Shown here: piece after piece, positions 2,300 to 17,461 of the stretch
Numbering within the stretch: the stretch's first letter is position 1
How the letters are laid out: every line of letters starts with the position of its first letter
Assembly: GCA_038848765.1 (NCBI GenBank)
Contig: JAWCNH010000001.1
Span: 1 to 26,927, forward strand
DNA: 26,927 bases
Direction of reading: 5' to 3'
Source: Candidatus Bathyarchaeia archaeon
GTDB lineage: Archaea; Thermoproteota; Bathyarchaeia; Bathyarchaeales; JAWCNH01
Notes under the pieces: model-generated
The model's database searches: none
Told to the model about the DNA's origin: nothing
Seen by the model: the letters and a program-made list of their open reading frames with translations, nothing else
Program-made: the position numbers and the translations under genes

Positions 2300-3013
2300 T
2301 TACGTGTGTTTTTCTTTCCAGAGTCTGAGGAGCACATAGATGCTTGCCCCCAGAACTATGACACAAGCCACCCCCAGCACAACAGCCAAAACAACAAAAC
2401 CACCAGACCCAATCACTGAAGCATCGCTCAAACTAGGCTTCAAAGACGCAAAAACACAAGCTACCGCCACAACCAAACCGCCGGGAATGGCAATATAATA
2501 CCACCTAGGCTTAAGGAACAAATAAACACCCAACCCAACCACAAAAGTGTCAAAGGCAACAACACCCAAAAACACAAATTCCATAGGAACAAACGGCACA
2601 ATAAAGAAAGAATGCGTGGCAACGCTCGAATAGCTAAACACAAAAAACGAAGAAGCCAGAAAAGCAGGAAAAGTAACTGTCAACAAAAAAGCCTTCGCCA
2701 GAACCCAAAGCCTCTTCACAAAACCAAGATAAACATTCACAGCCGCAACATTAAACAAAGCCACGCCAAGGTAAATAACGCTATACCAAAAACGCATGTA
2801 ACCGCCAAAAAACGAAAGAAACTCTCTGCTTACAAGCAAATGCCCAAAACCAGCCAAAGCAGCCACCTGATAAACGTAAGGAAGCGCCACAGGAAAATGC
2901 CTATCAAAAAGACAAGAAAGAAGGCTGATTACTAAAAAAATGTCAATACCTAAGAGTAGGAAAAACTCTGGCTGAATTGGCTGCGACACTTTCCTTACCA
3001 AGCGAAAGGTCAT
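2300..3013 (-). CDS. Polytopic membrane protein (about 7 TM), function unknown
   Basis: 237 aa with successive hydrophobic segments. Its stop lies 7 nt before the SD of the next gene. Confidence 0.75.
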   Translation of the reverse strand: MTFRLVRKVSQPIQPEFFLLLGIDIFLVISLLSCLFDRHFPVALPYVYQVAALAGFGHLLVSREFLSFFGGYMRFWYSVIYLGVALFNVAAVNVYLGFVKRLWVLAKAFLLTVTFPAFLASSFFVFSYSSVATHSFFIVPFVPMEFVFLGVVAFDTFVVGLGVYLFLKPRWYYIAIPGGLVVAVACVFASLKPSLSDASVIGSGGFVVLAVVLGVACVIVLGASIYVLLRLWKEKHT

Positions 3014-3038
3014 GCATCTGTTTATTTAAGACATATGA

Positions 3039-3053
3039 ATTCAGAATCTGAAT
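3039..3053. promoter_or_regulatory. 7-1-7 inverted repeat just upstream of a TATA-like box for the membrane-protein gene
   Basis: ATTCAGA-A-TCTGAAT. The minus strand reads TTAAATAAA at 3021-3029, and the ATG is at 3013. Confidence 0.35.
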
Positions 3054-3233
3054 CCGAATCACCACAGCCAACATATCACCACCAACGAGACCTTTTGACT
3101 GGTCAAAGAAAATTTTCCCCGTCTAATCAAATCAGCAGTAGACTTCTTGTCATTGTTGTTAAACAAAGAAAATCTCCTGATGTTGAACAAACCAGCAAGT
3201 TGGAGGTTCAGAGAGCGGATTTCTTCATTGATA

Positions 3234-3247
3234 AAAATTTAAATTTT
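3234..3247 (+). promoter_or_regulatory. Probable BRE/TATA promoter of the purE operon (leaderless)
   Basis: AAAATTTAAATTTT with TTTAAA about 24-29 nt before ATG 3267. No SD is visible. Confidence 0.55.
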
Positions 3248-3266
3248 CTCAAGCCAATTTACATGT

Positions 3267-3776
3267 ATGCCCAAGGAAAAAATTGTCGTTTTAATGGGTT
3301 CGGATAAAGACTTCGCCTTTGCCTCACGCATCGGCGTTTTTCTTCAAGAAGCTGGGTTTCCAGTTGAATGTGAATATGAAGTTGCCTCTGCGCATAAGAC
3401 TCCGAAAAGACTTTTAGACATTTTGCAAAGCCAAGAAAAAACTGGAGACAACATTGTGTTCATAACCGTGGCTGGATTGTCTGACGCGCTTTCAGGCATT
3501 GTCGCTGGCAACACTAGGTATCCAGTGATCGCTTGTCCCCCAGACTCGGAAAAATATGGATGGGCTAAGGTCTTCTCTTCCACAATGACGCCTAAAGGGG
3601 TTGCTGTCGCCTATGTTCCTGAGCCCGAAAATGCGGCTCTGATGGCTTTGAAGATTTTAGCTTTATCCAACCCAAAGCTTCAGGAGAAAATTGTCTTTTT
3701 TAGGCGGAAAATGGAAGAAAAAGTTTATGAAGCAGCGGAAAACTTGAAGACGAAAACTGAAAAGGGCTCTAAATGA
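3267..3776 (+). CDS. purE: AIR carboxylase PurE, class II-like
   Basis: Motifs VLMGSDKD, SAHKTP, TVAGLSDALSG and YPVIACPP. Overlaps purC by ATGA. Confidence 0.93.
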   Translation: MPKEKIVVLMGSDKDFAFASRIGVFLQEAGFPVECEYEVASAHKTPKRLLDILQSQEKTGDNIVFITVAGLSDALSGIVAGNTRYPVIACPPDSEKYGWAKVFSSTMTPKGVAVAYVPEPENAALMALKILALSNPKLQEKIVFFRRKMEEKVYEAAENLKTKTEKGSK

Positions 3777-4618
3777 CAAGTTTGGACGTTGTCTTGTCAA
3801 CAGAGTTGCCTCTCCCATTGTTTAAGCGTGGAAAAGTTAGAGACATATACGATTTAGGCGATAAACTACTCATTGTCTCCACGGACAGAATTTCCGCCTT
3901 CGACGTTATATTATCCGATGGCATACCATACAAAGGCGAAGCGCTAAACAGACTATCCGCCTACTGGTTTAACCAAACAAGACATATTGTTCCGAACCAC
4001 ATTCTAGACGTGGTGGACACAAGAACAGTTTTGGTCAGGAAAACTATCCCAATAAAAATCGAGTTTGTCGTAAGAGGATACCTGTACGGTTCAGCATGGG
4101 AAAACTACGCAAAAGGGAAACCCACCTGCGGAATCCAGCTCCCAAAAGGTTTGAAAAAGGCGGAAAAACTACCCACCCCAATCTTGTCGCCGACAACAAA
4201 GGCGGACGTGGGGCACGATGTAGAAATAAGCCAAAAAGAAGTTGTTAAACTGATTGGAAAAGACAAAGCGGAGCAAATAGGGGAAATCTGCCTAAAAATT
4301 TACCAAGAAGCCTCAAAGAAGGCAGAGGAAAACGGCATAATCATCGCAGACACAAAACTTGAATTCGGCTTCTACAAAGGCGAAATCCTCCTCATCGACG
4401 AATTATTTACCCCAGACTCATCAAGGTTCTGGCCTTTAGACAAATACGAAGTTGGAAAAGACCAGATTAGCTTCGACAAACAATACGTGAGAGACTATCT
4501 AACTTCCATCGGATGGAATAAGCAGCCTCCAGCGCCGAAATTGCCGCCCAAAGTTATTTTTGAAACGTCCAAAAAATATGTTGAAGCCTATGAAAGGCTG
4601 ACTGGCAGAAAATTCTGA
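3773..4618 (+). CDS. purC: SAICAR synthetase
   Basis: Motifs RGKVRDIY, TDRISAFD, EFVVRGYLYGS, IADTKLEFG, DELFTPDSSRFW and DKQYVRDYL. Confidence 0.97.
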   Translation: MTSLDVVLSTELPLPLFKRGKVRDIYDLGDKLLIVSTDRISAFDVILSDGIPYKGEALNRLSAYWFNQTRHIVPNHILDVVDTRTVLVRKTIPIKIEFVVRGYLYGSAWENYAKGKPTCGIQLPKGLKKAEKLPTPILSPTTKADVGHDVEISQKEVVKLIGKDKAEQIGEICLKIYQEASKKAEENGIIIADTKLEFGFYKGEILLIDELFTPDSSRFWPLDKYEVGKDQISFDKQYVRDYLTSIGWNKQPPAPKLPPKVIFETSKKYVEAYERLTGRKF

Positions 4619-4623
4619 CATGG

Positions 4624-4660
4624 GAAAGATTAAAATTCAATCTTTCACAAGCTAGTGTGA
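4624..4660. promoter_or_regulatory. Two adjacent inverted repeats in the purC-purP intergenic region
   Basis: GAAAGATT-N7-AATCTTTC (4624-4646) and TCACA-N6-TGTGA (4645-4660), followed by SD GAGGTGG and ATG 4670. Confidence 0.4.
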
Positions 4661-4669
4661 GGTGGTTTC

Positions 4670-6103
4670 ATGCCTATTGAAAGAGAAGAAATGCAGGAAA
4701 TCGTTAAAAAATATAGGGAGCCGATTGGGCTTAACTTAGGTTCACATTCAGCCCTTGATGCGTGGCAAGGTCAAAGGAATTATGGTTTAAGAAGTATAAT
4801 TTACGTGACGCCTCAGAGGGCGAGGATTTATCTTCAAAACCCGATGGTGGGTAAACCAGACGAAAGTGTGGAAGATTTACCCTTGCTTGTTAGAAGGGAT
4901 TTGAAAGTTGTGAACGATTTAAAAGACGTGAGGAAGAATGGCGACTGGCGCAGCATAATATTCATTGTAGAAAAGTATTCCCACATAGTGAAGTATGTTG
5001 ACCAGCTAATAGATTTGGAATGCTTGCAAATTCCCAACCGAGCCTTCGCAGTCTACGTCGGAGGCGACGAAAACTGCAGCGTAATCGAAAACGACTTTGC
5101 AGTTCCCATAGTTGGCTCAAGAAGGCTGTTGAAAATCGAGAATAGGGGCGAAATAGAAAAAGACTACTACTGGTTCGCGGAAAAGGCTGGTATCCCCTAT
5201 CCACAATCCTACCAGTTTGAAGTTTACGAAGAAGGCATAAAATTCAAAAACCCAATAGAAGAGCCGATCTTGCTGAAGGCAGAACATGCCCACAGAGAGT
5301 TCGAAAGGGAATTCATTTTTGCCGCTGACTCGCAAGACTTGGAAGAAAAAGTGAGACGTGAAGTAAAGGCTGGAAATCTGGATAGAAAAAGCTTGGAAAA
5401 TGCGAGGGTTGAGCAAATCGTTCTGGGGCCGCATGCCAATTTTAACTTCTTCTTTTCACCTCTAGACGCCAAAAAAGAGTGGGGCGACGTAGACGACTGG
5501 TATTCAAAACTTTACAATGTCAGCCTTGAAGAGGCAAGGACATGCCTAGCCAACCAGTTCTTATCCATAGATGAACGAAGAGAGACGATACTGGACGGTG
5601 TGAAACGTTTACCAGCGGATGTGCAAGAAAAAATTAAGAAGGTTCCATCCTTCGAGGTTACTGCGCATGTAGCCATGAGCTTAAGGGAATCCCTCTTAAA
5701 AGATATGCACCGATACGCTGACCGCTTTCTTCTAGCCACAAAACAATACGAACCACCTGGAATCATCGGCGCTTGGTGTCTCCAAACCTTAATCACGTGG
5801 GATAAAATATCAAAATATGAATTGAAGCCTACAGTGAAAGTTGACCTAACACTTGGCACAGAAGCAAAAACTGCGGTGGATTACGGCTTATACGATGTTC
5901 CTTCTGGAAGAGAACCTTACATGCATATTCCAGTAACGCAAGACGTCGCCCTGCGTCACGGAGGCGGAACAAACGTTCACATGGGCGTAGGCTCCCAATA
6001 CGCAAACGCAAAATACATGCGACCTATGAGCATGGGCGATAGGATAGCTCTAGAAATCCGAAGGGCATGGAAAGAAGGTTTGCTTTCAGAAATTGTCACA
6101 TAA
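4670..6103 (+). CDS. purP: PurP-family ATP-grasp protein (formate-phosphoribosylaminoimidazolecarboxamide ligase-like), divergent and enlarged
   Basis: Motifs GSHSALD, IPNRAF, SLRESLL, PPGIIGAWCLQ, GGGTN and SMGDRIALEI match the PurP (DUF1246/DUF1297) family. It is 477 aa against about 360 aa for MJ0136-type PurP. Confidence 0.85.
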   Translation: MPIEREEMQEIVKKYREPIGLNLGSHSALDAWQGQRNYGLRSIIYVTPQRARIYLQNPMVGKPDESVEDLPLLVRRDLKVVNDLKDVRKNGDWRSIIFIVEKYSHIVKYVDQLIDLECLQIPNRAFAVYVGGDENCSVIENDFAVPIVGSRRLLKIENRGEIEKDYYWFAEKAGIPYPQSYQFEVYEEGIKFKNPIEEPILLKAEHAHREFEREFIFAADSQDLEEKVRREVKAGNLDRKSLENARVEQIVLGPHANFNFFFSPLDAKKEWGDVDDWYSKLYNVSLEEARTCLANQFLSIDERRETILDGVKRLPADVQEKIKKVPSFEVTAHVAMSLRESLLKDMHRYADRFLLATKQYEPPGIIGAWCLQTLITWDKISKYELKPTVKVDLTLGTEAKTAVDYGLYDVPSGREPYMHIPVTQDVALRHGGGTNVHMGVGSQYANAKYMRPMSMGDRIALEIRRAWKEGLLSEIVT

Positions 6104-6115
6104 ACAGGTGAAAAA

Positions 6116-7198
6116 GTGCCGGAAAGCTTCACTTACGCCCAAGCAGGAGTAAACAGAAAATTAAGGGCAGAATCAAAAGCTGCGTTGAAAATTCTGAGGC
6201 AAACCTACAAGTTTAGTCGTTATGGGAGGGTTGTCCAACTTCCTTATGGCAACATTTTCCCAATTGGCGGAAACCGTTACCTAGACTTGGTCATTGAAGG
6301 CGTCGGTACAAAAGTTTTGTTGGCACAGTTGGCAAACAAATACGACACCATAGGAATAGACGCAGTAGCCTTGGCGGTGAACGATGTCATAAGGTCTGGC
6401 GCCAAGCCAATAGCAATCTCAGACAACATCCATGCACACGTTTCCGACCCTTACCTCGTAAAAGAATGGATGAAAGGCATTGTGAAAGCCGCTGAAGAAT
6501 CCGAATGTATCGTGCCAAGCGGAGAAATCGGCGACGTTGCTGAAATAATTCGGGGCTTAGTCGAAGGAAAAGGCTTTGACATGGTCATTGCATGTGTGGG
6601 CGAACTCTCACGCCGAAACATAATTTTTGGAAACAACATAAAACCAGACGATGTTGTGATTGGCTTTAGAAGTTCAGGGATTCACAGCAACGGCGTAACC
6701 TTAGCGAGAAAAATTCTGTTTAAACAGTGGGGCGGCAAATACAACCCCTTTGACGTCCCAGACGGATTCAACCGAGAACTGGTCTACGAAGTTTTAGAAC
6801 CCATGAAAATCTATGTAAAACCCTTTTTGAATCTGGCTAAAGAAGTGAAAATAAAAGGCGCAGTGCACATAACAGGCGACGCCTACCTCAAATTTGACAG
6901 GTTAATGAAGTTTTCTAAGGGAATAGGATTCGAATTCAACAATTTCAAGCCCCAACCGATTTTTGAACTAATCCAGAAAACGGCGAAAGAAATTCGCCGT
7001 CCAGTTACGGACGAGGAAATGTTGAAAACATTCAACATGGGCTGGGGCTTTGCGGTCATAATAGAAAAAGCAGAAGCAGAAAAAGCCATTGACACCCTAG
7101 AAAAAACCAAATGCCAAGCAGAAGAAATAGGATACGTGACGAATTCGCAGAGAATTGTTGCCTTATATAAAAACAGAAAAATTTTACTAAAGCAATAG
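6116..7198 (+). CDS. purM: AIR synthetase (phosphoribosylformylglycinamidine cyclo-ligase)
   Basis: Motifs TYAQAGV, EGVGTK, GIDAVALAVND, SSGIHSNG, HITG and TFNMGWG. GTG start with GGTGA upstream. Confidence 0.95.
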   Translation: MPESFTYAQAGVNRKLRAESKAALKILRQTYKFSRYGRVVQLPYGNIFPIGGNRYLDLVIEGVGTKVLLAQLANKYDTIGIDAVALAVNDVIRSGAKPIAISDNIHAHVSDPYLVKEWMKGIVKAAEESECIVPSGEIGDVAEIIRGLVEGKGFDMVIACVGELSRRNIIFGNNIKPDDVVIGFRSSGIHSNGVTLARKILFKQWGGKYNPFDVPDGFNRELVYEVLEPMKIYVKPFLNLAKEVKIKGAVHITGDAYLKFDRLMKFSKGIGFEFNNFKPQPIFELIQKTAKEIRRPVTDEEMLKTFNMGWGFAVIIEKAEAEKAIDTLEKTKCQAEEIGYVTNSQRIVALYKNRKILLKQ

Positions 7199-7231
7199 TT
7201 TTTAAACTATTGTTTAAATTTTTATGTAGAC

Positions 7232-7245
7232 AAAATTTAAATTTT
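7232..7245 (+). promoter_or_regulatory. Probable BRE/TATA promoter of purSLQ (leaderless)
   Basis: AAAATTTAAATTTT, identical to the purE element, about 25-30 nt before ATG 7267, in an AT-rich 68 bp gap. Confidence 0.55.
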
Positions 7246-7266
7246 TAACTGTTCAAGCATATAAAT

Positions 7267-7518
7267 ATGCGATACAAAGCCAAAATAGAAATAAGCCTTA
7301 AACCTGGGCATTCAGACCCAGAAGGACAGACTACTGCGCGTTCTTTACGGGAGCTTAACTATAAGGTTGTGGAAGTTGCCGTAAGTAAGGTCTACACTGT
7401 TGTTTTTGAGGCTAAGACAAGAAAAGAGGCTGAGAAGCATGTGGAAGAAATGTGCCGCCGATTGTTGGCGAACCCTACAAAGGACAATTTTCAATACGTG
7501 ATTGAGGAAATAAAATGA
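7267..7518 (+). CDS. purS: FGAM synthase subunit PurS
   Basis: 83 aa with LKPGHSDPEG and RLLANP. Overlaps purL by ATGA. Confidence 0.95.
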   Translation: MRYKAKIEISLKPGHSDPEGQTTARSLRELNYKVVEVAVSKVYTVVFEAKTRKEAEKHVEEMCRRLLANPTKDNFQYVIEEIK

Positions 7519-9890
7519 GCCAACTTTTTATTGAGCATAAGTTGCCCTTCAAACTTTTCGAAATCAACATCTTAGAGGCTGATGGCGAAAAACTGTTAAA
7601 AATTAGCCAAGAAATGGGTTTAGGCTTAAACCTAGAAGAAATGATGGTGATTCAACAATATTTTTCAAGGAAAAGAAGGAACCCAACCGACGTCGAACTT
7701 CAAACAATTGGACAAACATGGTCAGAACATTGTTTCCATAAGACTTTCAAGGGAGAGATAACCTTCGGCAGGAACCAAATAGACGGACTTTTCAACACAT
7801 ACATAGCCAAAGTCACAAAAGAACTGAAACCTTCATGGTGCCTCTCCGTCTTCGAAGACAATGCGGGCATAATCGAATTTGAAAATGGTTATGCAGTAGC
7901 CGTTAAAGTTGAAACCCATAATCATCCATCAGCCATAGAACCCTTCGGCGGAGCAGCAACTGGAGTAGGCGGCGTCATAAGAGACATATTGGGCGTTTGG
8001 GCAGACCCAATAGCGTGCATGGACGTTTTGGGTTTCGGACCGCTAAATTATGACTATGGGCAGTTGCCTTTAGGCGTTAAGCATCCAAAATACTTGTTTA
8101 AAGGCGTGGTTGCTGGCATTGGCTGTTATGGCAATAACATGGGAATCCCAACGGTGAACGGTGCCGTATGCTTCGACGAAAGCTATGTGGGCAATGTCGT
8201 AGTTTACTGTGGTTGTGTCGGCATTCTTCCATGGGACAAATTCGTTAAGAATGTAAAGCCAGAAGACATTATTGTTTTGGCTGGCGGAAAAACTGGTCGT
8301 GATGGAATTCACGGAGTAACTTTCGCCTCTGCAGAACTAACTGAAAAATCGGAGGAAGTTTCGCGGCCAGCTGTGCAGATTGCGAATCCAATAGAGGAAG
8401 AGAAGCTTAAGCGAGCCATCATTGAAATCCGAGACAAGAAACTGGCTTCAGCCATAACCGACCTCGGCGGCGGAGGCTTATCCTCGGCTGTTGGAGAAAT
8501 GGCGCATAGATTTAAATGCGGCGCACATGTGGAGTTAGACCGTGTTCCATTGAAGTATCCAGACATGGCTCCTTGGGAAATCTACATTTCAGAATCACAA
8601 GAAAGAATGCTTTTGGCGGTTCCAAAGAATAATCTTCCAGAAACCTTGAAAATCTTCGCAATGGAAGATGTGGAAGCCACACCGATTGGCAAGTTCACAG
8701 AAGATGGAATCCTTAGAATTCATTATAGAGAGTCTCTTGTTGCAGAATTGGACATTTCCTTCCTTTTTAGCCCTCCAAGGATTAGGAGAAGAGCTGAATG
8801 GAAAGAACCAGACCTAGAAGAGCCAAGTTTTCCAGAACCGCAAAAACTGGGCGATTATGTTCTGAAGCTGTTGTCTTCGCCTAACATTGCAAGCAAAGAA
8901 TCAGTGATACGAACTTATGACCATGAAGTGAAAGGAAACACTGCGCTTAAACCGCTCCACGGCGAGTATGGGGGACCAAACGACGCTGCAGTGCTTAAGC
9001 CCTTAAACGATTCTTGGAAAGGCTTGGTCATATCTTGCGGCATTAATCCAAAATATGGTAAAATTGACCCTTACTGGATGGCTGCTTCTTGCATTGACGA
9101 AGCCATAAGAAACAATGTTGCAGTTGGCGGAAGAAGAATAGCTTTGCTTGACAATTTCACCTGGGGCAGCCCAGAACATGCAGACAGACTTGGCGCCCTT
9201 TTGAAAGCCTGCCAAGCATGTTACGAGTTTTCTAAAGGCTTTGAAACGCCCTTCATTTCTGGAAAAGACAGCCTCTATAATGAGTCGCCACTAGGTCCAG
9301 TAACGCCTACATTATTGATAACAGCTGTGGGCATCATTCCAGACATTAGAAAAGCTGTTTCACTCGACTTAAAAACGCCTGGAAACAATGTCTACGTGGT
9401 TGGTAAGACGTATCCAGAACTTGGCGGTTCAGCCTACTATGACTTGATGGGTTTTATTGGGAAGTCTGTTCCAAAAGTGAGGGTTAAGGAAGCAAAAAAA
9501 ATCATAAATGCAGTAACAAGTGCCATTGACGCTGGCTTTGTTAAGGCTTGTCATGACCTTTCTGAAGGCGGTTTGGCTGTGGCTGCTGCTGAAATGGCTT
9601 TAAGCAGCATGTTTGGAGTGGAACTTTATTTGAAAAAGGTTCCCTACTCTTCTTGGCAAAAAAGAAACGACTTCATTCTCTTCTCAGAATCAAACAGCCG
9701 TTTCCTTCTAGAAGTTGCAGAAAAACATGCGAACGAATTCAAATCCTTAATGAAAGGCATAACATGCGCCCAAATTGGAAAAGTGACTGAAAAACAGGCT
9801 CTAACCATTTATGGCTCAAACAATAAGCCGCTACTCGAAATTGGATTGGATGAACTTCGGAGAATCTGGAAAAGCGGGTTGGAAGGCTAA
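7515..9890 (+). CDS. purL: FGAM synthase synthetase subunit PurL
   Basis: Motifs WSEHC, KVETHNHPSAIEPFGGAATGVGGVIRD, DLGGGGL, SESQERM, ISGKDS, HDLSEGG and FSES. Confidence 0.97.
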   Translation: MSQLFIEHKLPFKLFEINILEADGEKLLKISQEMGLGLNLEEMMVIQQYFSRKRRNPTDVELQTIGQTWSEHCFHKTFKGEITFGRNQIDGLFNTYIAKVTKELKPSWCLSVFEDNAGIIEFENGYAVAVKVETHNHPSAIEPFGGAATGVGGVIRDILGVWADPIACMDVLGFGPLNYDYGQLPLGVKHPKYLFKGVVAGIGCYGNNMGIPTVNGAVCFDESYVGNVVVYCGCVGILPWDKFVKNVKPEDIIVLAGGKTGRDGIHGVTFASAELTEKSEEVSRPAVQIANPIEEEKLKRAIIEIRDKKLASAITDLGGGGLSSAVGEMAHRFKCGAHVELDRVPLKYPDMAPWEIYISESQERMLLAVPKNNLPETLKIFAMEDVEATPIGKFTEDGILRIHYRESLVAELDISFLFSPPRIRRRAEWKEPDLEEPSFPEPQKLGDYVLKLLSSPNIASKESVIRTYDHEVKGNTALKPLHGEYGGPNDAAVLKPLNDSWKGLVISCGINPKYGKIDPYWMAASCIDEAIRNNVAVGGRRIALLDNFTWGSPEHADRLGALLKACQACYEFSKGFETPFISGKDSLYNESPLGPVTPTLLITAVGIIPDIRKAVSLDLKTPGNNVYVVGKTYPELGGSAYYDLMGFIGKSVPKVRVKEAKKIINAVTSAIDAGFVKACHDLSEGGLAVAAAEMALSSMFGVELYLKKVPYSSWQKRNDFILFSESNSRFLLEVAEKHANEFKSLMKGITCAQIGKVTEKQALTIYGSNNKPLLEIGLDELRRIWKSGLEG

Positions 9891-9892
9891 TC

Positions 9893-10711
9893 ATGCAGAA
9901 GCAAAGCATTAATGTTTGCATTCTCCGAGTCGGCGGAACCAACTGCGACATGGAAACTCAACGGGCTTTCAACGATTTAGGCGTAAAAGCGGAAATAGTT
10001 CATTTCAACGAAATCCTACGTAAAAAAAGCTTGTTTGACTATGACGCCCTTGTTCTTCCAGGAGGCTTCTCTTATGGCGATTATGTGAGGGCTGGAGCCA
10101 TTTGGGCAAAGGGAATCGTTGCCAAACTTGGCCCTAGCCTAAAACGTTTTGTAAAGGAAGAGAGACCCATCCTTGGCATTTGCAACGGCTTCCAAGTTCT
10201 TGTTGAGGCGGGTTTGCTGCCAGGCTTTAGGGGAGTAAGCAAGTATCCCACAGCGGCTTTGGCGCCGAATGTTCCGTCTGGATATAATTGCAGATGGGTT
10301 TACATCAAACATGAAAATAATGGCAATTGCATCTTCACGAGAAAAATCGATAGAAAGGCTGTGTTGAGGGTTCCTGTGGCTCATTCGGAAGGTCGCTTTA
10401 TTTTTCCCAAAGAAAAAGAGAAGGAGTATTTGAAGAAGCTTTACAAGAATGACCAGCTGGTTTTTCGATACTGCCATGCAAATGGAGACTATGCGGAAGG
10501 TGAATATCCAGCCAATCCTAACGGTTCTTTTCACGACATCGCTGGAATCTGCAACTCAAACGGAACAGTCTTCGGCTTAATGCCACATCCAGAGAGAGCC
10601 TACTATGGCTGGCAACTGCCGGACTGGACTCGGAAAGAGAAGGTTCCTCAATACGGCGATGGAAAACTAATCTTCGAATCCATGATAGAATATTTAACCA
10701 AAAAGTTATAG
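9893..10711 (+). CDS. purQ: FGAM synthase glutaminase subunit PurQ
   Basis: Motifs GTNCD, PGGFSYGD, LGICNGFQ (catalytic Cys), AHSEG, NPNGS and MPHPER. Confidence 0.97.
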   Translation: MQKQSINVCILRVGGTNCDMETQRAFNDLGVKAEIVHFNEILRKKSLFDYDALVLPGGFSYGDYVRAGAIWAKGIVAKLGPSLKRFVKEERPILGICNGFQVLVEAGLLPGFRGVSKYPTAALAPNVPSGYNCRWVYIKHENNGNCIFTRKIDRKAVLRVPVAHSEGRFIFPKEKEKEYLKKLYKNDQLVFRYCHANGDYAEGEYPANPNGSFHDIAGICNSNGTVFGLMPHPERAYYGWQLPDWTRKEKVPQYGDGKLIFESMIEYLTKKL

Positions 10712-11419
10712 ATAGGCAAACAACTCATCAAGCCTTGATATTCTCATACAGTTCTCGTTTTTATGCAATCCCTTTCTATCAAGCAGCAGGGCTTTCATTC
10801 CCACGGATTTGGCTCCAAGATAATCCTCTTCGTATTTATCTCCTACATGCATCATTCTTGTTAAAGGCGTGTTGGAAAGTTTTGAAGCAATTTTAAAAAT
10901 TTCCGGATTAGGCTTCTCATATCCCACAGTGCCAGAAGCAACCAAAACGTCAAAGTAATTGCCTAACCCAGCCTTATCGAGATAAATTCTTAGATTCTTT
11001 TCTGAAGAAACATTGGAAACCGCAATTACCCGTATTCCCCTTTGCTTAAGCATTTTAAGGGTTGGTTCAGCGTCTTCGTAAGCTTGAAAAGCTGCCTTCT
11101 GAAACCAAAGGTTAGAAAGCTTCATGGCAAGTGTATTCGGGTTAGACAGCCCCAGAGTTGCCACCATTTTTTTAAGCAAACTAATCCTCATATCGTCATT
11201 CCAAATCTTGTCTGTTCTCGCTTTTTCTTCAAGCCAACATGCACGCGCCGATTCTAATGCTTCCTTAACTACGCTATCATTAACGTCGTAACCTAACTCG
11301 TTTAAAATCTCTTTATAAACAACAAATTCTTGAACCGCTTCATAATATAAAGTGCCGCCGCAGTCAAGCGACACTGTTTCTATATTAGAAGTTTTTGAAA
11401 TCCTTAAGTTCGTGGGCAT
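10706..11419 (-). CDS. HAD-IA family hydrolase (REG-2-like)
   Basis: Motif I SLDCGGTLY, motif II VSN, KPNPEIF and motif IV HVGDKYEEDYLGA. The start is uncertain because it overlaps the upstream kinase gene by 35 nt. Confidence 0.88.
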   Translation of the reverse strand: MPTNLRISKTSNIETVSLDCGGTLYYEAVQEFVVYKEILNELGYDVNDSVVKEALESARACWLEEKARTDKIWNDDMRISLLKKMVATLGLSNPNTLAMKLSNLWFQKAAFQAYEDAEPTLKMLKQRGIRVIAVSNVSSEKNLRIYLDKAGLGNYFDVLVASGTVGYEKPNPEIFKIASKLSNTPLTRMMHVGDKYEEDYLGAKSVGMKALLLDRKGLHKNENCMRISRLDELFAYL

Positions 11420-12299
11420 ACGGCAAGCCTCTCCTAGCGCCTATTTTTTCTATACATTTCGAAGCCACAAAATTTCCCAAGCGACCGCACTCACGCAAAT
11501 TCTTTCCTTTCAACAAACCGTATAAAAAGCCGGCGTTGAAGGCGTCGCCAGCACCTGTCGTGTCAACAACTTTCGCTTTAAACGGTTCTACGTGACACGC
11601 TTCTTTCCCATCCGTCACGTAGCATCCTTTGGCGCCAAGTTTTACAGCGACTATGTCCACGCCCATTTCGACAAACATTTCTGCGCCTTCCCTATAGCCC
11701 TTCCCAGTAAGCAACTTCATTTCGATTTCGTTCAGAAACAAGACAAAGCATCTTTTTATAATGGATTCTAGGCTTGTTAAACCCTTTCTCGCATATATCG
11801 TGCCTGGGTCAAGACTTACTTTGACTGAAGAGGGAATTTTTTTGACCAGTCTTTTTTGTGTTTCAAAGGATGTTTCGCCCACAAAAGAAGTTAAGTGTAG
11901 AAAACTTGTGTTTTCTGCGTATTTGACATTTATTTCTTCATATTGAATTGTGCTGTTAACGCCTGGGTCTACGTATAGGGCTCTTTCGCCGTTTTCGTCG
12001 ACAAAACCTAGAACAACTCCGCTTCTTCCCTTCTTAGAGACTATTATTCCGTCAATGTTAACGCCTTCTTTTTCAAAGTCTTTTAAGAGTAGTTTTCCTT
12101 CAATGTCTTGCGCTATTTTCCCTATATAGCCTACCTTCAAGCCTAATCTGGCTAAGCCAACAATTGTGTTTGCTGCTGAGCCTCCGCAAGCTTGTTTGAA
12201 ATTTTTTATGAAGCTTTCCTCGTCTTTTCCAGCAATTTTGTTTACTCTGTAAAGTTTGTCTACGTTTAAAGCGCCGAAACCCACAACGTCGAATTTCAT
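11385..12299 (-). CDS. PfkB/ribokinase-family kinase (EhaT-like)
   Basis: Motifs [15 protein letters not shown] and [12 protein letters not shown]. The start overlaps the stop of the ftr-like gene (ATGA-type overlap). Confidence 0.93.
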
Positions 12300-13207
12300 G
12301 GAAACAACTCTCTTAAATAAATCTTGTATTTTCCAAGTTTTCCGCCATAGTTTCCTGCAGAAATCTTCACAACATTTTCCACGTCAAGAATGCTTTCAAT
12401 TCCAGCCTTCATTGCCTCTTTCACTGCCTTTAAGGAAATGCCGTTGATCACTATTTCTGGAATATATTTTACGCCTTTTGGAACTTTCGACTCTTTCCCA
12501 AGTCTCTTTTTTAGTGAAGGGCAGTAGGGGTGGTTTGTTGTTGGTCCTATAGCTGGAAAACGAGTTTCTGGCTTCGAACCAGCGGAACACACGTCGAAAG
12601 GGGTAATGACTCCTTCCACTCGTCCAATAGCGTCTAAAGCCTTTCTTCCAGCCCTTTTTACGGCTTCTTTTGTTTTGCACATGTACCAGAAGTTGGCTCC
12701 GCATACTCCACGTGCATAGCCTATGTAACGTTCTATGTGAAAGTCTGGAACCATTATTGGAACAACAATCATGCGGCGTTCATAAAGTTGTTCTTCCCAC
12801 TCAAAACTGTCTCCACAATGGCCTACCAACTCCATCATGTCAATTTTTCCTTCTGCATTCGCCGTCGCGTCAAAAATTCTTGTGAAAGGTTTGACAAGAA
12901 TGTCTTGCCGAATCCGATAGGACAATTCTTTGGCAAACTTTCGAAGAACTTCTTCAAAGGGCTTGTCTGTTCGGAGTTCTCCCCAAAACTGCAAAACAGC
13001 GCCAAACCTTTTGTCCGGCGTTTCTTCTGGCTTTAACCATTTTTCCACTCCGCCTTCTGTTCTGCCAACAACTACTGCTGGTGTGGCTGTCGCATCTTCA
13101 GCAGCCTTTCTCAAAGTTTTTTTATCATCCGCAGTAACTATTACTCTGCAGTAGAGCCCTTCAAAAGCTTCTGCAAATGTATCTTCAACCTCTGCCTTCT
13201 GCTCCAA
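12296..13207 (-). CDS. ftr: Formylmethanofuran:H4MPT formyltransferase-family protein, divergent paralog (EhaS/Ftr-II-like)
   Basis: Motifs [32 protein letters not shown] and [11 protein letters not shown] are Ftr hallmarks. TTG 13207 follows GAGGAG; the ORF track start is TTG 13222. Confidence 0.9.
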
Positions 13208-13235
13208 AATTTCTCCTCTCAAATTTTAATTTCTT

Positions 13236-14315
13236 TTAGCCTAACCTGCCTATAGCCTCTCCTCTAACTTTTTTCCTAAATTCGCTGCTTTCTTTCCTCA
13301 GTCTTTCCATATTGTCTGAAGTTATGATTTCAATTTTAGGAAATTTTTTAGGCCACAATTCAAGAGCAAGCTTCGTTAAGCTTTGGTTTACATCATATTT
13401 CTTTAGGGCTTGGTGGCTCCAGTTTTCTACAAGCTTTAAGGTTTTTTCTTTGCCTAATCTCTGGAAAGTGTCGGCAAGGATTGAAGTTGCAAGGGTGTTG
13501 TGGGCGAGGACTGCGACTTCTGCCTCTCTTATGGCGTATTGGTTACCGTTAAAAGAAACAGTTAACCCTCCAAACCTTCTAACAAGCCTAAAACATTCCA
13601 CATCTGTAATGCTGTCGCCCACATACATGACATTATGCAACTGGCTTTCCAGTCGCTTAACAATTTCCTTCAAAATATTTGCTTTCTCTAAACCGCCAAC
13701 TGGATTTACCTCTTCCAAAATCTTTCCAGATTGCATCTGCTGAATTTCATTCCAGAAAATTTCGTTTAGTAGGCTAATTGTTTTTAGGCTTGTTTCTGAT
13801 AATTCTTGCAGAGACTTGACGCCTACTGGAATTTCTATTTGGGGTGCTTTTGCGATTTCTTGGGCAATTTCTTGAAGCCTTTTCTTTTCTTTTAGGCTTA
13901 TTTTGTATTTGTCAATGTCAAGTTTTGTTGAGTAAGTGTTTTCAAATGGGAAATCGGTAGCTTCACATAAAGCCCTTATGTAATGTTCATAGCTGGTGCT
14001 TAAAATGAAGGAGGGCATGATGCCCTTAACATAGCTTAGCGTTTCTTTTGCTCCTGGCATTAGCAGAATGTTCCTAATGGAAAACTCTTTCATTTTGCTG
14101 TTTGTTACGTCATATGCCCTCAAAAAGGGTAGAATCAGCCTTAACGTGTCTCCAGCCTTATAACCTGGCTTTTTTACAATGTCGGCGAGAACGTCGTCGT
14201 ATCTGCTTATTGTTGTGAAAAGTTTTTCTCCGTTTGGAATAAAGTTGCATGTTAATTCAAATGCGTTGTCGTTTTTTGATATTGGTCCCTCGCAGTCGGA
14301 AACAAAAATTCTCAA
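13236..14315 (-). CDS. EhaR-like protein (archaeal HAD-fold, predicted phosphatase)
   Basis: N-terminus MRIFVSDCEGPISKNDNAFEL, STSY and YVGDSITD (HAD motifs I, II and IV). The N-terminus matches proteins annotated as energy-converting hydrogenase A subunit R, recalled from memory. TTG start lies 1 nt after the purD stop. Confidence 0.8.
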   Translation of the reverse strand: MRIFVSDCEGPISKNDNAFELTCNFIPNGEKLFTTISRYDDVLADIVKKPGYKAGDTLRLILPFLRAYDVTNSKMKEFSIRNILLMPGAKETLSYVKGIMPSFILSTSYEHYIRALCEATDFPFENTYSTKLDIDKYKISLKEKKRLQEIAQEIAKAPQIEIPVGVKSLQELSETSLKTISLLNEIFWNEIQQMQSGKILEEVNPVGGLEKANILKEIVKRLESQLHNVMYVGDSITDVECFRLVRRFGGLTVSFNGNQYAIREAEVAVLAHNTLATSILADTFQRLGKEKTLKLVENWSHQALKKYDVNQSLTKLALELWPKKFPKIEIITSDNMERLRKESSEFRKKVRGEAIGRLG

Positions 14316-14316
14316 A

Positions 14317-15726
14317 TTATTTGCGCCTCAATTGTTTCATGTGCTGGATGGTTTTTTGAATATGCTCTTTTGAGGCTATGTCTGTGCGGTTCCAGAGGGC
14401 TCCGCCTCGTATGACATTTATTCCTTCTAGGGAGATGTCCCTAGCCTCTTGAATGTTGTCGCCTATGCCTACAACGCATACTGCCCTTGAGCCTAACGCA
14501 TAAATTTCATTGTCTCTTTGTTCCACTGAAGCGGGATAAACCCTTATTCTGTCTCCATATTTCTCGCTTAGTCTGTACGCCTCGTCCAGAACCACAGGCG
14601 TCCCAATTTCTTCTTTTCTAACCTTTTGCGGAAAGGCTTCTTGGAAGCCTCCATAGGAAGGTGGAACCTTATAGGTGACTACGGTTGCTTTTCCTTCAAA
14701 CTCTACATGGGAGAGGTTTCCTTCAACGATTTTGAAACAGACGTCCACGAAATCATCATTTAAGATTGGTAGAAGGTTTTGTATTTCTGGGTCGCCTGGT
14801 CTGCTGTTGTTCTCCAAAATTTTTAATCCATTGGCTGTGTGGATGAAAGCCACGTAGAAGGGTATGCCACGCAAACCAGATTCGACGTTCTCTCTTCTCA
14901 ATCCTTCGAAAATTTTGTTTACTATGGCTATTTCTTTTTCTCTGTCGGCTTTTGTCATGAAAGGAAGCCATTCGCCCACGTCTTTGTATGAGCCCATTCC
15001 TCCAGTGTTTGGTCCCCTGTCTCCGTCGAAGGCTCTCTTATAGTCTCTTGTTTCTGGCAAGGGCACTAGATGTTTTCCGTCGCAGAAGGCTTGGAAACTG
15101 GATTCTTCGCCCTCGATTTTTTCTTCTATTATGACTTTGCCATGTTGATAATTCGCCAAGAAATGTTCGAAGAGTTGTTTTCTCGTGGTGAAATGGTCGC
15201 CCCAAACTCCTACGCCTTTTCCCGCGGCTGGAGCATCTGGCTTCACGACAGCCTTGTTTTCTAGTTGGTCAAGCCAAGCATATACTTCCTTTTCAACCTC
15301 TCCAATGCTTGCAAAGTTTTTGGGGTTGAAAACTTTGAATTTCGGGTTTGCCTCTGGCACAACTTTTTCGAATAGTCTGCGCTGTTCCACTTTGCTTTTT
15401 TCTATTGCGCAATGTTGTGTAGGGCAAATCACGGGTATCTTTGTCTCTTTTTCTATTAGGTTTCTGATTCCTTCAATTATTGGTTTTTCTGGTCCAACTA
15501 TTGCGAAGTCTATTTCCTTTTGGTTTTGTTTGGCAAACTCGCAAATTTTGTTTATGTCGAGTGTGGGCACAACAACGTGTTTCGCTGCCCTTTTTAGGTT
15601 GTAAGGGTTTCTTTGTTTATCCACAACATAGATTTTAACATCATAGTTTCGGCTTCTGCTAAATGCATCTATCATTGCTGCCTCTCTGGCGCCGTAGGAA
15701 ACAACTAGGACGCCGACTTTTTCCAT
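14317..15726 (-). CDS. purD: Phosphoribosylamine-glycine ligase (GAR synthetase)
   Basis: Motifs VGPE, KPDAPAAGKGV, IEEKIEGEE, DYKRAFDGDRGPNTGGMGSY and NSRPGDPE. ATG 15726 follows GAGGGG; the track start is TTG 15738. Confidence 0.95.
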   Translation of the reverse strand: MEKVGVLVVSYGAREAAMIDAFSRSRNYDVKIYVVDKQRNPYNLKRAAKHVVVPTLDINKICEFAKQNQKEIDFAIVGPEKPIIEGIRNLIEKETKIPVICPTQHCAIEKSKVEQRRLFEKVVPEANPKFKVFNPKNFASIGEVEKEVYAWLDQLENKAVVKPDAPAAGKGVGVWGDHFTTRKQLFEHFLANYQHGKVIIEEKIEGEESSFQAFCDGKHLVPLPETRDYKRAFDGDRGPNTGGMGSYKDVGEWLPFMTKADREKEIAIVNKIFEGLRRENVESGLRGIPFYVAFIHTANGLKILENNSRPGDPEIQNLLPILNDDFVDVCFKIVEGNLSHVEFEGKATVVTYKVPPSYGGFQEAFPQKVRKEEIGTPVVLDEAYRLSEKYGDRIRVYPASVEQRDNEIYALGSRAVCVVGIGDNIQEARDISLEGINVIRGGALWNRTDIASKEHIQKTIQHMKQLRRK

Positions 15727-15761
15727 TGAACCCCTCAAAGAATCATGAAGTTAAACTCTTT

Positions 15762-17270
15762 TTAACTTTGGGGTTTTTCAATTATGCTGAACATTTCATA
15801 AAGCCTTCCAGTTTCCTTATACCCTTTTTCAAAGAGTTGCCTCATTTCGTCAGCCATTTTTTGAGCCAAGGGCGTTGGATATTTTCCAGTAACGCATGCC
15901 AAACAAAGTTCATCTTCACGCATTCCGGTTGCGCGGATAAACCCGTCCAGCGACTGATAATTAACCGAGTCTGCGCCGATAATCTCAGCTATTTCATCCG
16001 CTTCATGAGTAGACCCGATAAGTTCGCTGTAAGTCGCCATGTCAATTCCGTAAGGGCATGGACCGATAATGCGTGGAAAAGTAATAAATAAATGAACCTT
16101 TTTGGCTCCCATTTTACGCAGTTTTTCCACAATAACCTTGGTTGTGTCTCCACGAACTATGCTGTCTTCGACAACGGCAAGATTTTTTCCTTTAATTTTT
16201 GATTCTAAAACATTAATTTTTCTATCTATGGTCGTGTATCGTTCTTGAGGCAATAATATGAATGCCCGTTCTGTAACATATCGGTGTCTCCTTAAGGCTC
16301 GTTCCCATCGAATTCCCGTCTCCATGTGAAGCCCAAAGGCTGCGTCATCGCCAGTTTCTGGCATGGAAACAATTATGTCGGTGCTTCTAACAATGTCTGA
16401 ATATTCTCTTGCAAGGTTTCTCCCGAACTCTTCCCTCACTTCATACACGTATTTATCGTCAAATTTGGAGTCTGGACGAGCGAAATAGGCGAATTCGAAA
16501 CCGCAAAAAGCTTTTCTCTCCCCACTTACCAGTCGTTCACGGTGGAAACCGTCCTCTGACACGGTGATAAATTCGCCTGGCACTACTTCGAAAGCATGCT
16601 CTAGGCTGTTAATGTTTAAACCCACGCTTTCTGAGGACGCTGCGTAAATTTTGCGGTTTTGGCTGTAGCCGCAGCAGAGGGGTCTTATGCCATGTGGGTC
16701 TTTGAAGATGAAAAATTCTCCGTCTTGGTTTATGCCAGCAACGGAGAAGGCGCCTTCAATTTCTTTCATGCAAGCCTTAACAGACAATTTTATGTCATGG
16801 GTTTTCATGTATTCAATAAGCAGTTTTCTGCAAATCAGCTCCGCATCGCATTCGTAGGCAAAATCTGGGAAAACTTCGCAAATTTCCCTTTTTAGCTGAA
16901 CTGCGTTAACAACATTGCCGTTAAACGAAAGGGCAAATTTTGTTTCTCCTGATTCTGCAACGACTGGCTGTGTCCCCCTAATTAACGCTTGTTCGTCAAC
17001 GCCACCAGAAGTTGTATATCTCACGTTTGCAATGCCTAAATGCCCAGGAAGCCTATCCAGCCAATCTTGAATATCCCTCTTCTTTATTTTCGGAACCAAA
17101 TCCAAACCCTTGTGGGCATGGAATTTTCCGTCAAACGTTAGAAAACCATGCGACTGGTGACCACGATGGTTTTGCGCTCTTAAACCCCAATAAATGGTTG
17201 GAAATATCGGGTTATGGCTGAAATCTACTGCGCCGAAGACCCCGCATGCTATTTTTAAACTGTCTATCAT
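15762..17270 (-). CDS. purF: Amidophosphoribosyltransferase (Fe-S type, with propeptide)
   Basis: MIDSLKIA|CGVFG, HRGHQS, RYTT, NGN, CGFEFAYFARPDS, DSIVRG, CPYGIDM and CLAC. ATG 17270 is preferred over TTG 17291. Confidence 0.96.
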   Translation of the reverse strand: MIDSLKIACGVFGAVDFSHNPIFPTIYWGLRAQNHRGHQSHGFLTFDGKFHAHKGLDLVPKIKKRDIQDWLDRLPGHLGIANVRYTTSGGVDEQALIRGTQPVVAESGETKFALSFNGNVVNAVQLKREICEVFPDFAYECDAELICRKLLIEYMKTHDIKLSVKACMKEIEGAFSVAGINQDGEFFIFKDPHGIRPLCCGYSQNRKIYAASSESVGLNINSLEHAFEVVPGEFITVSEDGFHRERLVSGERKAFCGFEFAYFARPDSKFDDKYVYEVREEFGRNLAREYSDIVRSTDIIVSMPETGDDAAFGLHMETGIRWERALRRHRYVTERAFILLPQERYTTIDRKINVLESKIKGKNLAVVEDSIVRGDTTKVIVEKLRKMGAKKVHLFITFPRIIGPCPYGIDMATYSELIGSTHEADEIAEIIGADSVNYQSLDGFIRATGMREDELCLACVTGKYPTPLAQKMADEMRQLFEKGYKETGRLYEMFSIIEKPQS

Positions 17271-17461
17271 AGTTGCTAGATTATAAGACAACTATATATC
17301 AATTTTTGTAACAGCTTTAAATAAATTTTACACATTTACGTATAACACGGAATGTTCGATATCTGATATATAAATTTTTAAGCAACTTCTGCGTAAATTA
17401 TCAGTGAAATAAAAAGGGTAGGAGGGGTTTTCTTATATCATTTAAATCCCTTATTTTTTCC

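Follow-up and report, generated by a model that had tools for sequence, protein, structure and literature searches.

In purine biosynthesis PurD makes glycinamide ribonucleotide (GAR) and PurL needs formylglycinamide ribonucleotide (FGAR), and the question raised by the locus described here is how the first compound becomes the second where neither PurN nor PurT is present. The locus lies in a stretch of 26,927 nucleotides (nt) from Candidatus Bathyarchaeia archaeon (GenBank assembly GCA_038848765.1, contig JAWCNH010000001.1, positions 1 to 26,927, forward strand), which is referred to as the window; its source is a metagenome-assembled genome of Bathyarchaeia of 1.07 Mb, in 143 contigs and 76.7% complete. 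In the window, purF and purD are followed by three genes which encode a haloacid dehalogenase (HAD)-fold phosphohydrolase (HADL), a paralogue (Ftr2) of formylmethanofuran:tetrahydromethanopterin (H4MPT) formyltransferase and a ribokinase-like kinase (PfkB), and none of the three proteins shows a Formyl_trans_N (PurN) or a PurT-type ATP-grasp domain. From the comparison of sequences and genomes we think it fairly probable that this trio is a three-enzyme module which converts GAR into FGAR where PurN and PurT are missing, probably through dephosphorylated riboside intermediates. Homology, gene order, catalytic motifs, distribution, an in-place replacement and a gene fusion are directly supported by the data. 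The GAR-formylating enzyme has counted as missing since 2011, when no purN or purT could be found in Archaeoglobi, Methanobacteriales and Methanopyrus, whose pathways are otherwise complete (Brown et al. 2011, PMC3261824), and again in 2022, when ANME-1 (anaerobic methanotrophic archaea) was added to the list (Chadwick et al. 2022, PMC9012536).

The three genes stand downstream of purD on the minus strand. As read from the sequence, the stop codon of purD (TAA) and the start codon of HADL (TTG) are separated by 1 nt, and the stop codon of Ftr2 and the start codon of PfkB overlap by 4 nt as ATGA. Two candidate TTG starts are present in Ftr2, at 13222 and 13207, which place the gene 13 or 28 nt from HADL; GGAG precedes the start at 13207, which is more likely to be the true one. 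Gene order, coordinates, gaps and overlap are those given in the initial annotation of the window. Related loci were found in 80 Bathyarchaeia in a search of species-representative genomes, with Ftr at 69-78% identity and protein identities across the loci of 50-78%. Nearly all of these loci that extend far enough show the order purF-purD-HADL-Ftr2-PfkB facing purQ-purL-purS-purM, with purF upstream of purD as in the window, and the recurrence of this order far exceeds chance. Furthermore, the PurD proteins of the Bathyarchaeia sample fall into two score classes only about 24-28% identical to one another: the low-scoring class (174.9-281 bits), to which the window PurD belongs, is usually found with the module, and PurD of most other genomes scores above 300 bits. 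The divergent PurD was considered as a marker of a changed substrate and set aside, given that genome G021 has a canonical-scoring PurD beside the trio and that f14/g42 shows low-scoring PurD with PurN-like genes.

The trio also occurs outside Bathyarchaeia. Two complete Methanobacterium genomes (L231 and L232) carry HADL, Ftr2 and PfkB in the same order as the window, with identities to the window proteins of 47-49% for HADL/EhaR, 62% for Ftr2/EhaS and 54-57% for PfkB/EhaT. In these genomes the trio is preceded by a NiFe hydrogenase large subunit and two polyferredoxins and followed by another polyferredoxin, which agrees with the published tail of the eha operon (Kaster et al. 2011, PMC3087415). 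Judged by sequence identity and gene order, the window trio is orthologous to EhaR/EhaS/EhaT, a resemblance already proposed for this locus; however, the window genes follow purF-purD and no hydrogenase is near, since domain searches found no hydrogenase domain in any open reading frame (ORF) of the window, as the initial annotation had stated. In print EhaR, EhaS and EhaT figure as subunits of Eha with no function given, and homologues of HADL carry the Joint Genome Institute name "energy-converting hydrogenase A subunit R". The ehaA-T operon of Methanothermobacter/Methanobacterium was reportedly described by Tersteegen and Hedderich in 1999. Our literature search found no functional assignment for EhaR/S/T, Ftr2 or AF1437/1Y8A, a search on GAR formylation and H4MPT found none for the trio, and the function of the trio appears to be unpublished. 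In the phylogenetic tree the Methanobacterium EhaS nests inside the Bathyarchaeia Ftr2 clade (100/98 support), which suggests that the trio has passed between Bathyarchaeia and Methanobacteria.

The distribution of the trio was compared with that of PurN (PF00551) and PurT in three samples, 121 genomes of Bathyarchaeia, 131 of Methanobacteria (71 for PF00551 and purT) and 161 of Halobacteriota; genomes in other phyla were obtained via a degenerate mcrA pattern. Among the Bathyarchaeia, purD was found in 108 genomes, HADL in 52, PF00551 in 51 and a PurT-like protein in nine, and HADL and PF00551 occur together in only five. Three purD-positive genomes (G030, G034 and G066) lack HADL, PF00551 and PurT alike, and the genomes without purD mostly show none of the three systems. 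HADL with neither PF00551 nor PurT is found in families f2-f7, f12, f19 and most of f18 and f20; PF00551 without HADL in families f14, f16 and f21-f26; and PurT beside purD in family f15 and the single f11 genome. Family f10 contains the trio in one genome, PurN in one and PurT in five. In Methanobacteria, EhaR was present in 130 of 131 genomes, and neither PF00551 nor PurT was found in any of the 71 searched. Sixty-seven Halobacteriota are HADL-positive, 62 of them also with an Ftr2 49-71% identical to that of the window. The 94 HADL-negative Halobacteriota show PF00551 in 79 genomes and a strong PurT in 10 more, and four of the last five have Ftr2. PfkB, 38-54% identical, adjoins HADL in 11 of 18 Halobacteriota loci inspected, and in one (L263) HADL, Ftr2 and PfkB are contiguous in an order different from that of the window. 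Seven Halobacteriota Ftr2 matches (G394, G384, G389, G300, G354, G269 and G321) each contain one in-frame stop (TGA, TAA or TAG). No HADL was found in Methanocaldococcus, a PurT organism, or in Methanosarcina, a PurN organism. Almost every sampled genome thus has only one of PurN, PurT and the trio, and the near mutual exclusivity of the trio or its HADL marker with PurN-like proteins and PurT in Bathyarchaeia, Methanobacteria and Halobacteriota, new here, is the anticorrelation for which the initial annotation had proposed a test.

Some of the PF00551 proteins counted above are divergent. Those of families f14, f16 and f22 have about 275 residues, and their best NCBIfam match is PurN with 94-108 bits, against a cut-off of 150; they keep an SGSGTN loop and the N-H-D catalytic residues. 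This PurN-like subfamily (SGSGTN ... NVHPADLS; L097:3928-4767, L098:2002-2817 and L099:1820-2767) is the sole candidate GAR transformylase in family f16 and is located beside purD in two genomes.

The distribution also bears on whether the trio only salvages or repairs purine-pathway ribosides while another enzyme carries out the main GAR formylation. PfkB kinases for such ribosides are known, an example being the aminoimidazole riboside kinase of Salmonella (STM4066), and some genomes carry HADL alongside PurN or PurT. A salvage role, however, requires a second, still undiscovered enzyme in hundreds of genomes and leaves unexplained both the disappearance of the trio where PurN or PurT is present and its position right after purD, and we consider it very improbable.

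A variant of the operon shows what happens when the formyltransferase changes. In family f8 (G028, L093:1839-8594) and in one f20 genome (G023, L094:2353-9066) the order is purF-purD-PurN variant-HADL-PfkB-FolD, in which a PF00551 protein of 281 or 330 amino acid residues (aa) takes the place of Ftr2. Its best match is PurN, with 74 and 51 bits; these scores do not reach the cut-off for PurN, and its phosphate loop is altered. In L093 the PurN variant, HADL and PfkB are located at 4860-5705, 3805-4863 and 2799-3749. This PurN variant is the only PF00551 protein in both genomes, which are 98-100% complete, and their single Ftr is located elsewhere and has an Ftr1-like score. An AICARFT (PurH1-like) gene is present alongside the folate-variant operon of L093. 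The PurN variant forms its own clade, common to Bathyarchaeia, Methanomassiliicoccales and a metagenomic protein (P0182) in which the PurN variant is fused to HADL. By this gene content, transferase and one-carbon (C1) carrier supply are exchanged together, Ftr2 and methanopterin for the PurN variant, FolD and folate, while HADL and PfkB stay. The in-place exchange implies that the transferase acts at the step after PurD, and the retention of HADL and PfkB through it implies that they serve the acceptor side and not the cofactor side. The view of the initial annotation that the trio belongs to purine synthesis and does not consist of hydrogenase subunits gains from this exchange, from the fusion and from the distribution over three phyla; its label "folate-independent" does not apply to the PurN-like variants in other lineages. 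Two further proteins, P0208 (899 aa) and P0222 (961 aa), show HADL fused to an N-terminal region of 530-600 aa with weak PurK/PurT-type ATP-grasp matches only (E 1.5e-4 and 8e-3), and this region may be a third kind of formylating partner.

The same variant helps to judge whether the trio serves C1-cofactor metabolism or Eha, the anticorrelation with PurN then only mirroring the use of methanopterin or folate. That the trio closes the eha operon in Methanobacteria (PMC3087415) would fit such a role, as would the fact that Ftr2 carriers appear to be H4MPT users, the source genome having Mch and FwdC. It is nevertheless decidedly unlikely in our view: HADL and PfkB persist with a PurN-like transferase and an adjacent FolD, there are H4MPT users with PurT and without the trio (Methanocaldococcus, and Bathyarchaeia of families f10, f11 and f15 with one Ftr), and the genes are packed closely behind purF-purD, with a 1-nt gap and an overlap at the junctions.

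The window Ftr has the two-lobe architecture of Ftr (PF01913 and PF02741), scores 344.7 bits with NF002554 (cut-off 297) and 229.9 bits with TIGR03119, below the equivalog cut-off of 292.6, and matches the Ftr1 structures 1M5H, 1M5S and 1FTR with E-values of 1e-50 to 3e-52. The catalytic glutamate (Glu245 of the Methanopyrus kandleri Ftr) is kept, the window motif PEIVING aligning with YEIVING of 1M5H. The source assembly contains one Ftr only, together with Mch and FwdC, which implies that an H4MPT C1 pathway is encoded. Being the sole Ftr of a 77%-complete assembly, and passing the NF002554 cut-off, it could be taken as the Wood-Ljungdahl enzyme of the organism, placed among pur genes by chance. 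We give this next to no credence. Almost all genomes of the order to which the window belongs have two Ftr genes (among 120 Bathyarchaeia genomes of at least 90% completeness), with PF01913 scores of about 180-200 bits for one copy and about 140-158 bits for the other, the window copy having 150.5 bits. In a maximum-likelihood tree the window Ftr falls in an Ftr2 clade apart from the Bathyarchaeia Ftr1 (100/100 support), and its identity is 62% with EhaS and only 32-38% with the Bathyarchaeia Ftr1. The idea of a single canonical Ftr was rejected on the two genes in sister genomes and the separation in the tree. The window protein is, on tree and identity, a divergent Ftr2 paralogue and not the Wood-Ljungdahl Ftr1, and the canonical Ftr1 of the source genome was probably merely unassembled. 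The clade contains the pur-linked Bathyarchaeia copies, the Methanobacterium EhaS and the Halobacteriota Ftr2, and was noted by Chadwick et al. 2022 (PMC9012536), who gave no function for it. Ftr2 shares with Ftr1 (PDB 1FTR/2FHJ, 1M5H and 1M5S) the two-lobe fold family and the conserved catalytic glutamate, and differs from it in its separate clade, its TIGR03119 score below the cut-off and its proposed acceptor, which would be a glycinamide amine instead of H4MPT.

HADL shows four HAD motifs, S-D-C-E-G-P (I), STSYE (II), GGxxK (III) and VGDSITD (IV), and a conserved C-terminal RKxVRGxxxGxLG. Across 72 diverse sequences, D7, S/T106-108, K211 and D234/D238 of motifs I-IV are invariant or nearly so, and the residue at position D+2 is glutamate. 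The closest structure is AF1437 of Archaeoglobus fulgidus (PDB 1Y8A; E 4.8e-30), a structural-genomics protein with which HADL has family and fold in common at 25% identity. An AlphaFold2 (AF2) model of HADL, with a predicted local distance difference test (pLDDT) score of 97.4, also matched 1Y8A in Foldseek, with template modelling (TM) scores of 0.81/0.92, followed by phosphoserine phosphatases. A phosphatase activity of HADL on GAR is predicted from its context and from the covariation described below. PfkB has the di-glycine motif GGSAANT and the catalytic DTTGAGDAF (DTxGAGD). Its best NCBIfam match is ribokinase TIGR02152 (173 bits, cut-off 299.65), and no NCBIfam equivalog cut-off was reached, including those of ribokinase, the ribose-1-phosphate kinases and nucleoside kinase. 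Ribokinase, the ribose-1-phosphate kinases and the aminoimidazole riboside kinase of Salmonella are PfkB kinases which phosphorylate C1-substituted ribofuranoses at the 5-OH, a purine-pathway riboside among them.

Phosphatase, kinase and phosphate loop of the transferase change together in Methanomassiliicoccales. In five genomes (L105, from Methanoplasma, and L234-L237) the PurN variant adjoins a HADL without the motif I aspartate and the first motif IV aspartate, and these genomes have no adjoining kinase and no close kinase homologue. The PurN variant is the only PF00551 match in three of the four dead-HADL genomes searched (L234-L237), and in the fourth it was seen by tblastn only. A sixth genome (L238) has an intact HADL with the kinase adjacent. 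The loop of the PurN variant reads S-T-G-R-G-x-G-S-R-N in the dead-HADL group, where a phosphate-loop motif (G-x-G-S-R-N) is retained, and S-[ST]-G-R-D-x-A-A in the group with active HADL and kinase, in an alignment that contains an insertion; the canonical PurN loop S-G-x-G-S-N binds the phosphate of GAR, as known from Escherichia coli PurN structures. This covariation of HADL, kinase and loop is as predicted by a scheme of dephosphorylation, formylation and rephosphorylation, and the dead HADL resembles a pseudo-enzyme retained to partner the formyltransferase. The Ftr2-to-PurN variant exchange with FolD and the covariation of dead HADL, kinase loss and phosphate loop are, like the near mutual exclusivity, new here.

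These data also decide how to weigh a simpler possibility, that Ftr2 alone formylates GAR and that HADL and PfkB are accessory, as a scaffold or GAR-binding subunit, a regulator or a riboside salvage pair. The catalytic glutamate kept in Ftr2 agrees with it; the dead HADL retained beside the PurN variant shows that HADL has some non-catalytic role, and the fusion of the two suggests a physical complex. Against an accessory HADL and kinase, HAD motifs I-IV are near-invariant in the 72 diverse homologues, the kinase is found with all intact HADL genes inspected in Bathyarchaeia and Methanobacterium and with 11 of the 18 in Halobacteriota, and its loss coincides exactly with that of the HADL aspartates, the loop of the PurN variant changing in step. 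We therefore regard direct formylation as unlikely, although it is the strongest of the alternatives. The initial annotation had offered two models, formylation of GAR by the Ftr-like enzyme (A) and formylation of a riboside between a phosphatase and a kinase (B); of these two predictions, B fits the covariation better than A.

In the scheme that we favour, what the enzymes act on, in which order they act and where the formyl group comes from are inferred. GAR is the product of PurD and FGAR the substrate of PurL, which leaves a phosphatase and a kinase no place to act other than between these two compounds. HADL would dephosphorylate GAR to glycinamide riboside, Ftr2 (or the PurN variant) would convert this to formylglycinamide riboside, and PfkB would phosphorylate it with ATP to FGAR, which is then used by PurL. 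The formyl group of Ftr2 would come from the methanofuran/H4MPT C1 pool, with formyl-methanofuran as the energetically easier donor. By textbook energetics, formyl transfer from formyl-methanofuran to H4MPT yields only about -4 kJ/mol. Because the formyl group sits on a primary amine in formyl-methanofuran and in FGAR alike, its transfer to GAR is expected to lie close to equilibrium. With a phosphatase selective for the unformylated nucleotide and a kinase selective for the formylated riboside, the route would become irreversible for one ATP, as with PurT. The proposed net reaction is the one catalyzed by PurN and PurT and the ATP cost equals that of PurT, while Ftr2 is unrelated to them in fold and the trio has two extra enzymes. 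The link with Eha in Methanobacteria would be sensible if Eha replaces C1 units withdrawn for biosynthesis, and Lie et al. in 2012 reportedly described an anaplerotic role of Eha. The wider proposal, that in a large share of archaea (Methanobacteria, Archaeoglobi/ANME-type Halobacteriota and many Bathyarchaeia) step 3 leaves the nucleotide level and runs as an ATP-driven ratchet around a near-equilibrium formyl transfer, is tentative, and we hold it possible but doubtful.

Several points weigh against the assignment of the trio to GAR formylation by this route. In the source genome no match to PF00551 and no convincing purT (only a 36-bit ATP-grasp match) were found, in line with the absence noted for the pur cluster by the initial annotation, and at 76.7% completeness these absences are unproven. 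HADL-positive Halobacteriota include six of 67 with PF00551 and one of 67, an ANME-2c, with PurT. The complementarity needs the divergent PurN-like proteins of the f16 type to be true GAR transformylases; under strict PurN and PurT cut-offs many module-less Bathyarchaeia would likewise lack an assigned enzyme. The two-by-two counts overstate the evidence, since related genomes do not count as independent, and the covariation of kinase and dead HADL may be a single evolutionary event. The detour through phosphatase and kinase costs ATP even in the folate variant, where a thermodynamic pull is unneeded. In addition, the trio is co-transcribed with the hydrogenase in Methanobacteria (PMC3087415).

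The features of the window that concern purine biosynthesis are listed in the table.

Table. Purine biosynthesis genes, the trio and an adjoining hydrolase gene in the window
Feature	Position	Strand	Domain and family matches
purF, amidophosphoribosyltransferase, first gene of the minus-strand operon	15762-17291	-	TIGR01134 312.8 bits (cut-off 350); GATase_6/7
purD, GAR synthetase	14317-15738	-	GARS_N/A/C; TIGR00877 273.7 bits (below cut-off of 288)
HADL, EhaR/AF1437-type HAD-fold phosphohydrolase, 359 aa	13236-14315	-	weak HAD Pfam matches only
Ftr2, EhaS-type paralogue of formylmethanofuran:H4MPT formyltransferase	12296-13222	-	PF01913 148.9 bits; PF02741 189.9 bits
PfkB, EhaT-type ribokinase-like kinase	11385-12299	-	PF00294 189.5 bits
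Second HAD-IA hydrolase, 237 aa	10706-11419	-	PF00702 70 bits; REG-2-like/CTE7 subfamily matches below cut-off
purE-purC-purP-purM-purS-purL-purQ, convergent operon	3267-10711	+	AIRC, SAICAR_synt, DUF1297/DUF1246, AIRS, PurS, FGAR-AT linker, GATase_5

The plus-strand operon covers the steps after FGAR, including the formate-dependent PurP. This PurP (4670-6103, plus strand) is long, with 477 aa, and its DUF1297 match is split into two stretches, which implies an insertion relative to the characterised PurP. The second HAD-IA gene overlaps the end of PfkB by 35 nt, and its product has weak similarity to ribulose-1,5-bisphosphate 5-phosphatase. It was considered as a member of the module and dropped, as tblastn found it in none of the 80 related loci, in which PfkB is usually followed at once by purQ; it is probably a lineage-specific addition outside the module. 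The other genes of the window encode a RecJ-like DHH protein, a CBS-HTH regulator, an archaeal SAM synthetase, a methyltransferase, a class I tRNA synthetase and a PQQ/PKD surface protein. Elsewhere in the source genome, contig C141 (L103:6-2239) carries a second, partial purD-HADL pair, whose proteins are 68% and 60% identical to those of the window; identity at the nucleotide level is 67%, and the GC (guanine plus cytosine) content is 46%, against 42.6% in the window. This pair probably comes from a second Bathyarchaeia population binned into the source genome.

The trio is the best candidate for the enzyme of purine step 3 in these archaea, and the comparative data turn the gap in GAR formylation into a specific and cheaply testable proposal. 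If it is true, the trio would be a third, unrelated solution to a universal biosynthetic step, and three genes now annotated as subunits of a hydrogenase would gain a function, as would the orphan structure 1Y8A in the PDB. Purine synthesis would be tied directly to the methanofuran/H4MPT C1 pool, and a pathway that is regarded as running strictly on nucleotides may contain riboside-level intermediates, which would be a new pathway topology. EhaR, EhaS and EhaT would then be purine enzymes, and their co-transcription with Eha would connect the anaplerotic role of Eha with the drain of formyl groups into purines. Furthermore, metabolic reconstructions of Bathyarchaeia, methanogens and methanotrophs, in which these organisms now appear as purine auxotrophs or with a hole in the pathway, would be corrected.

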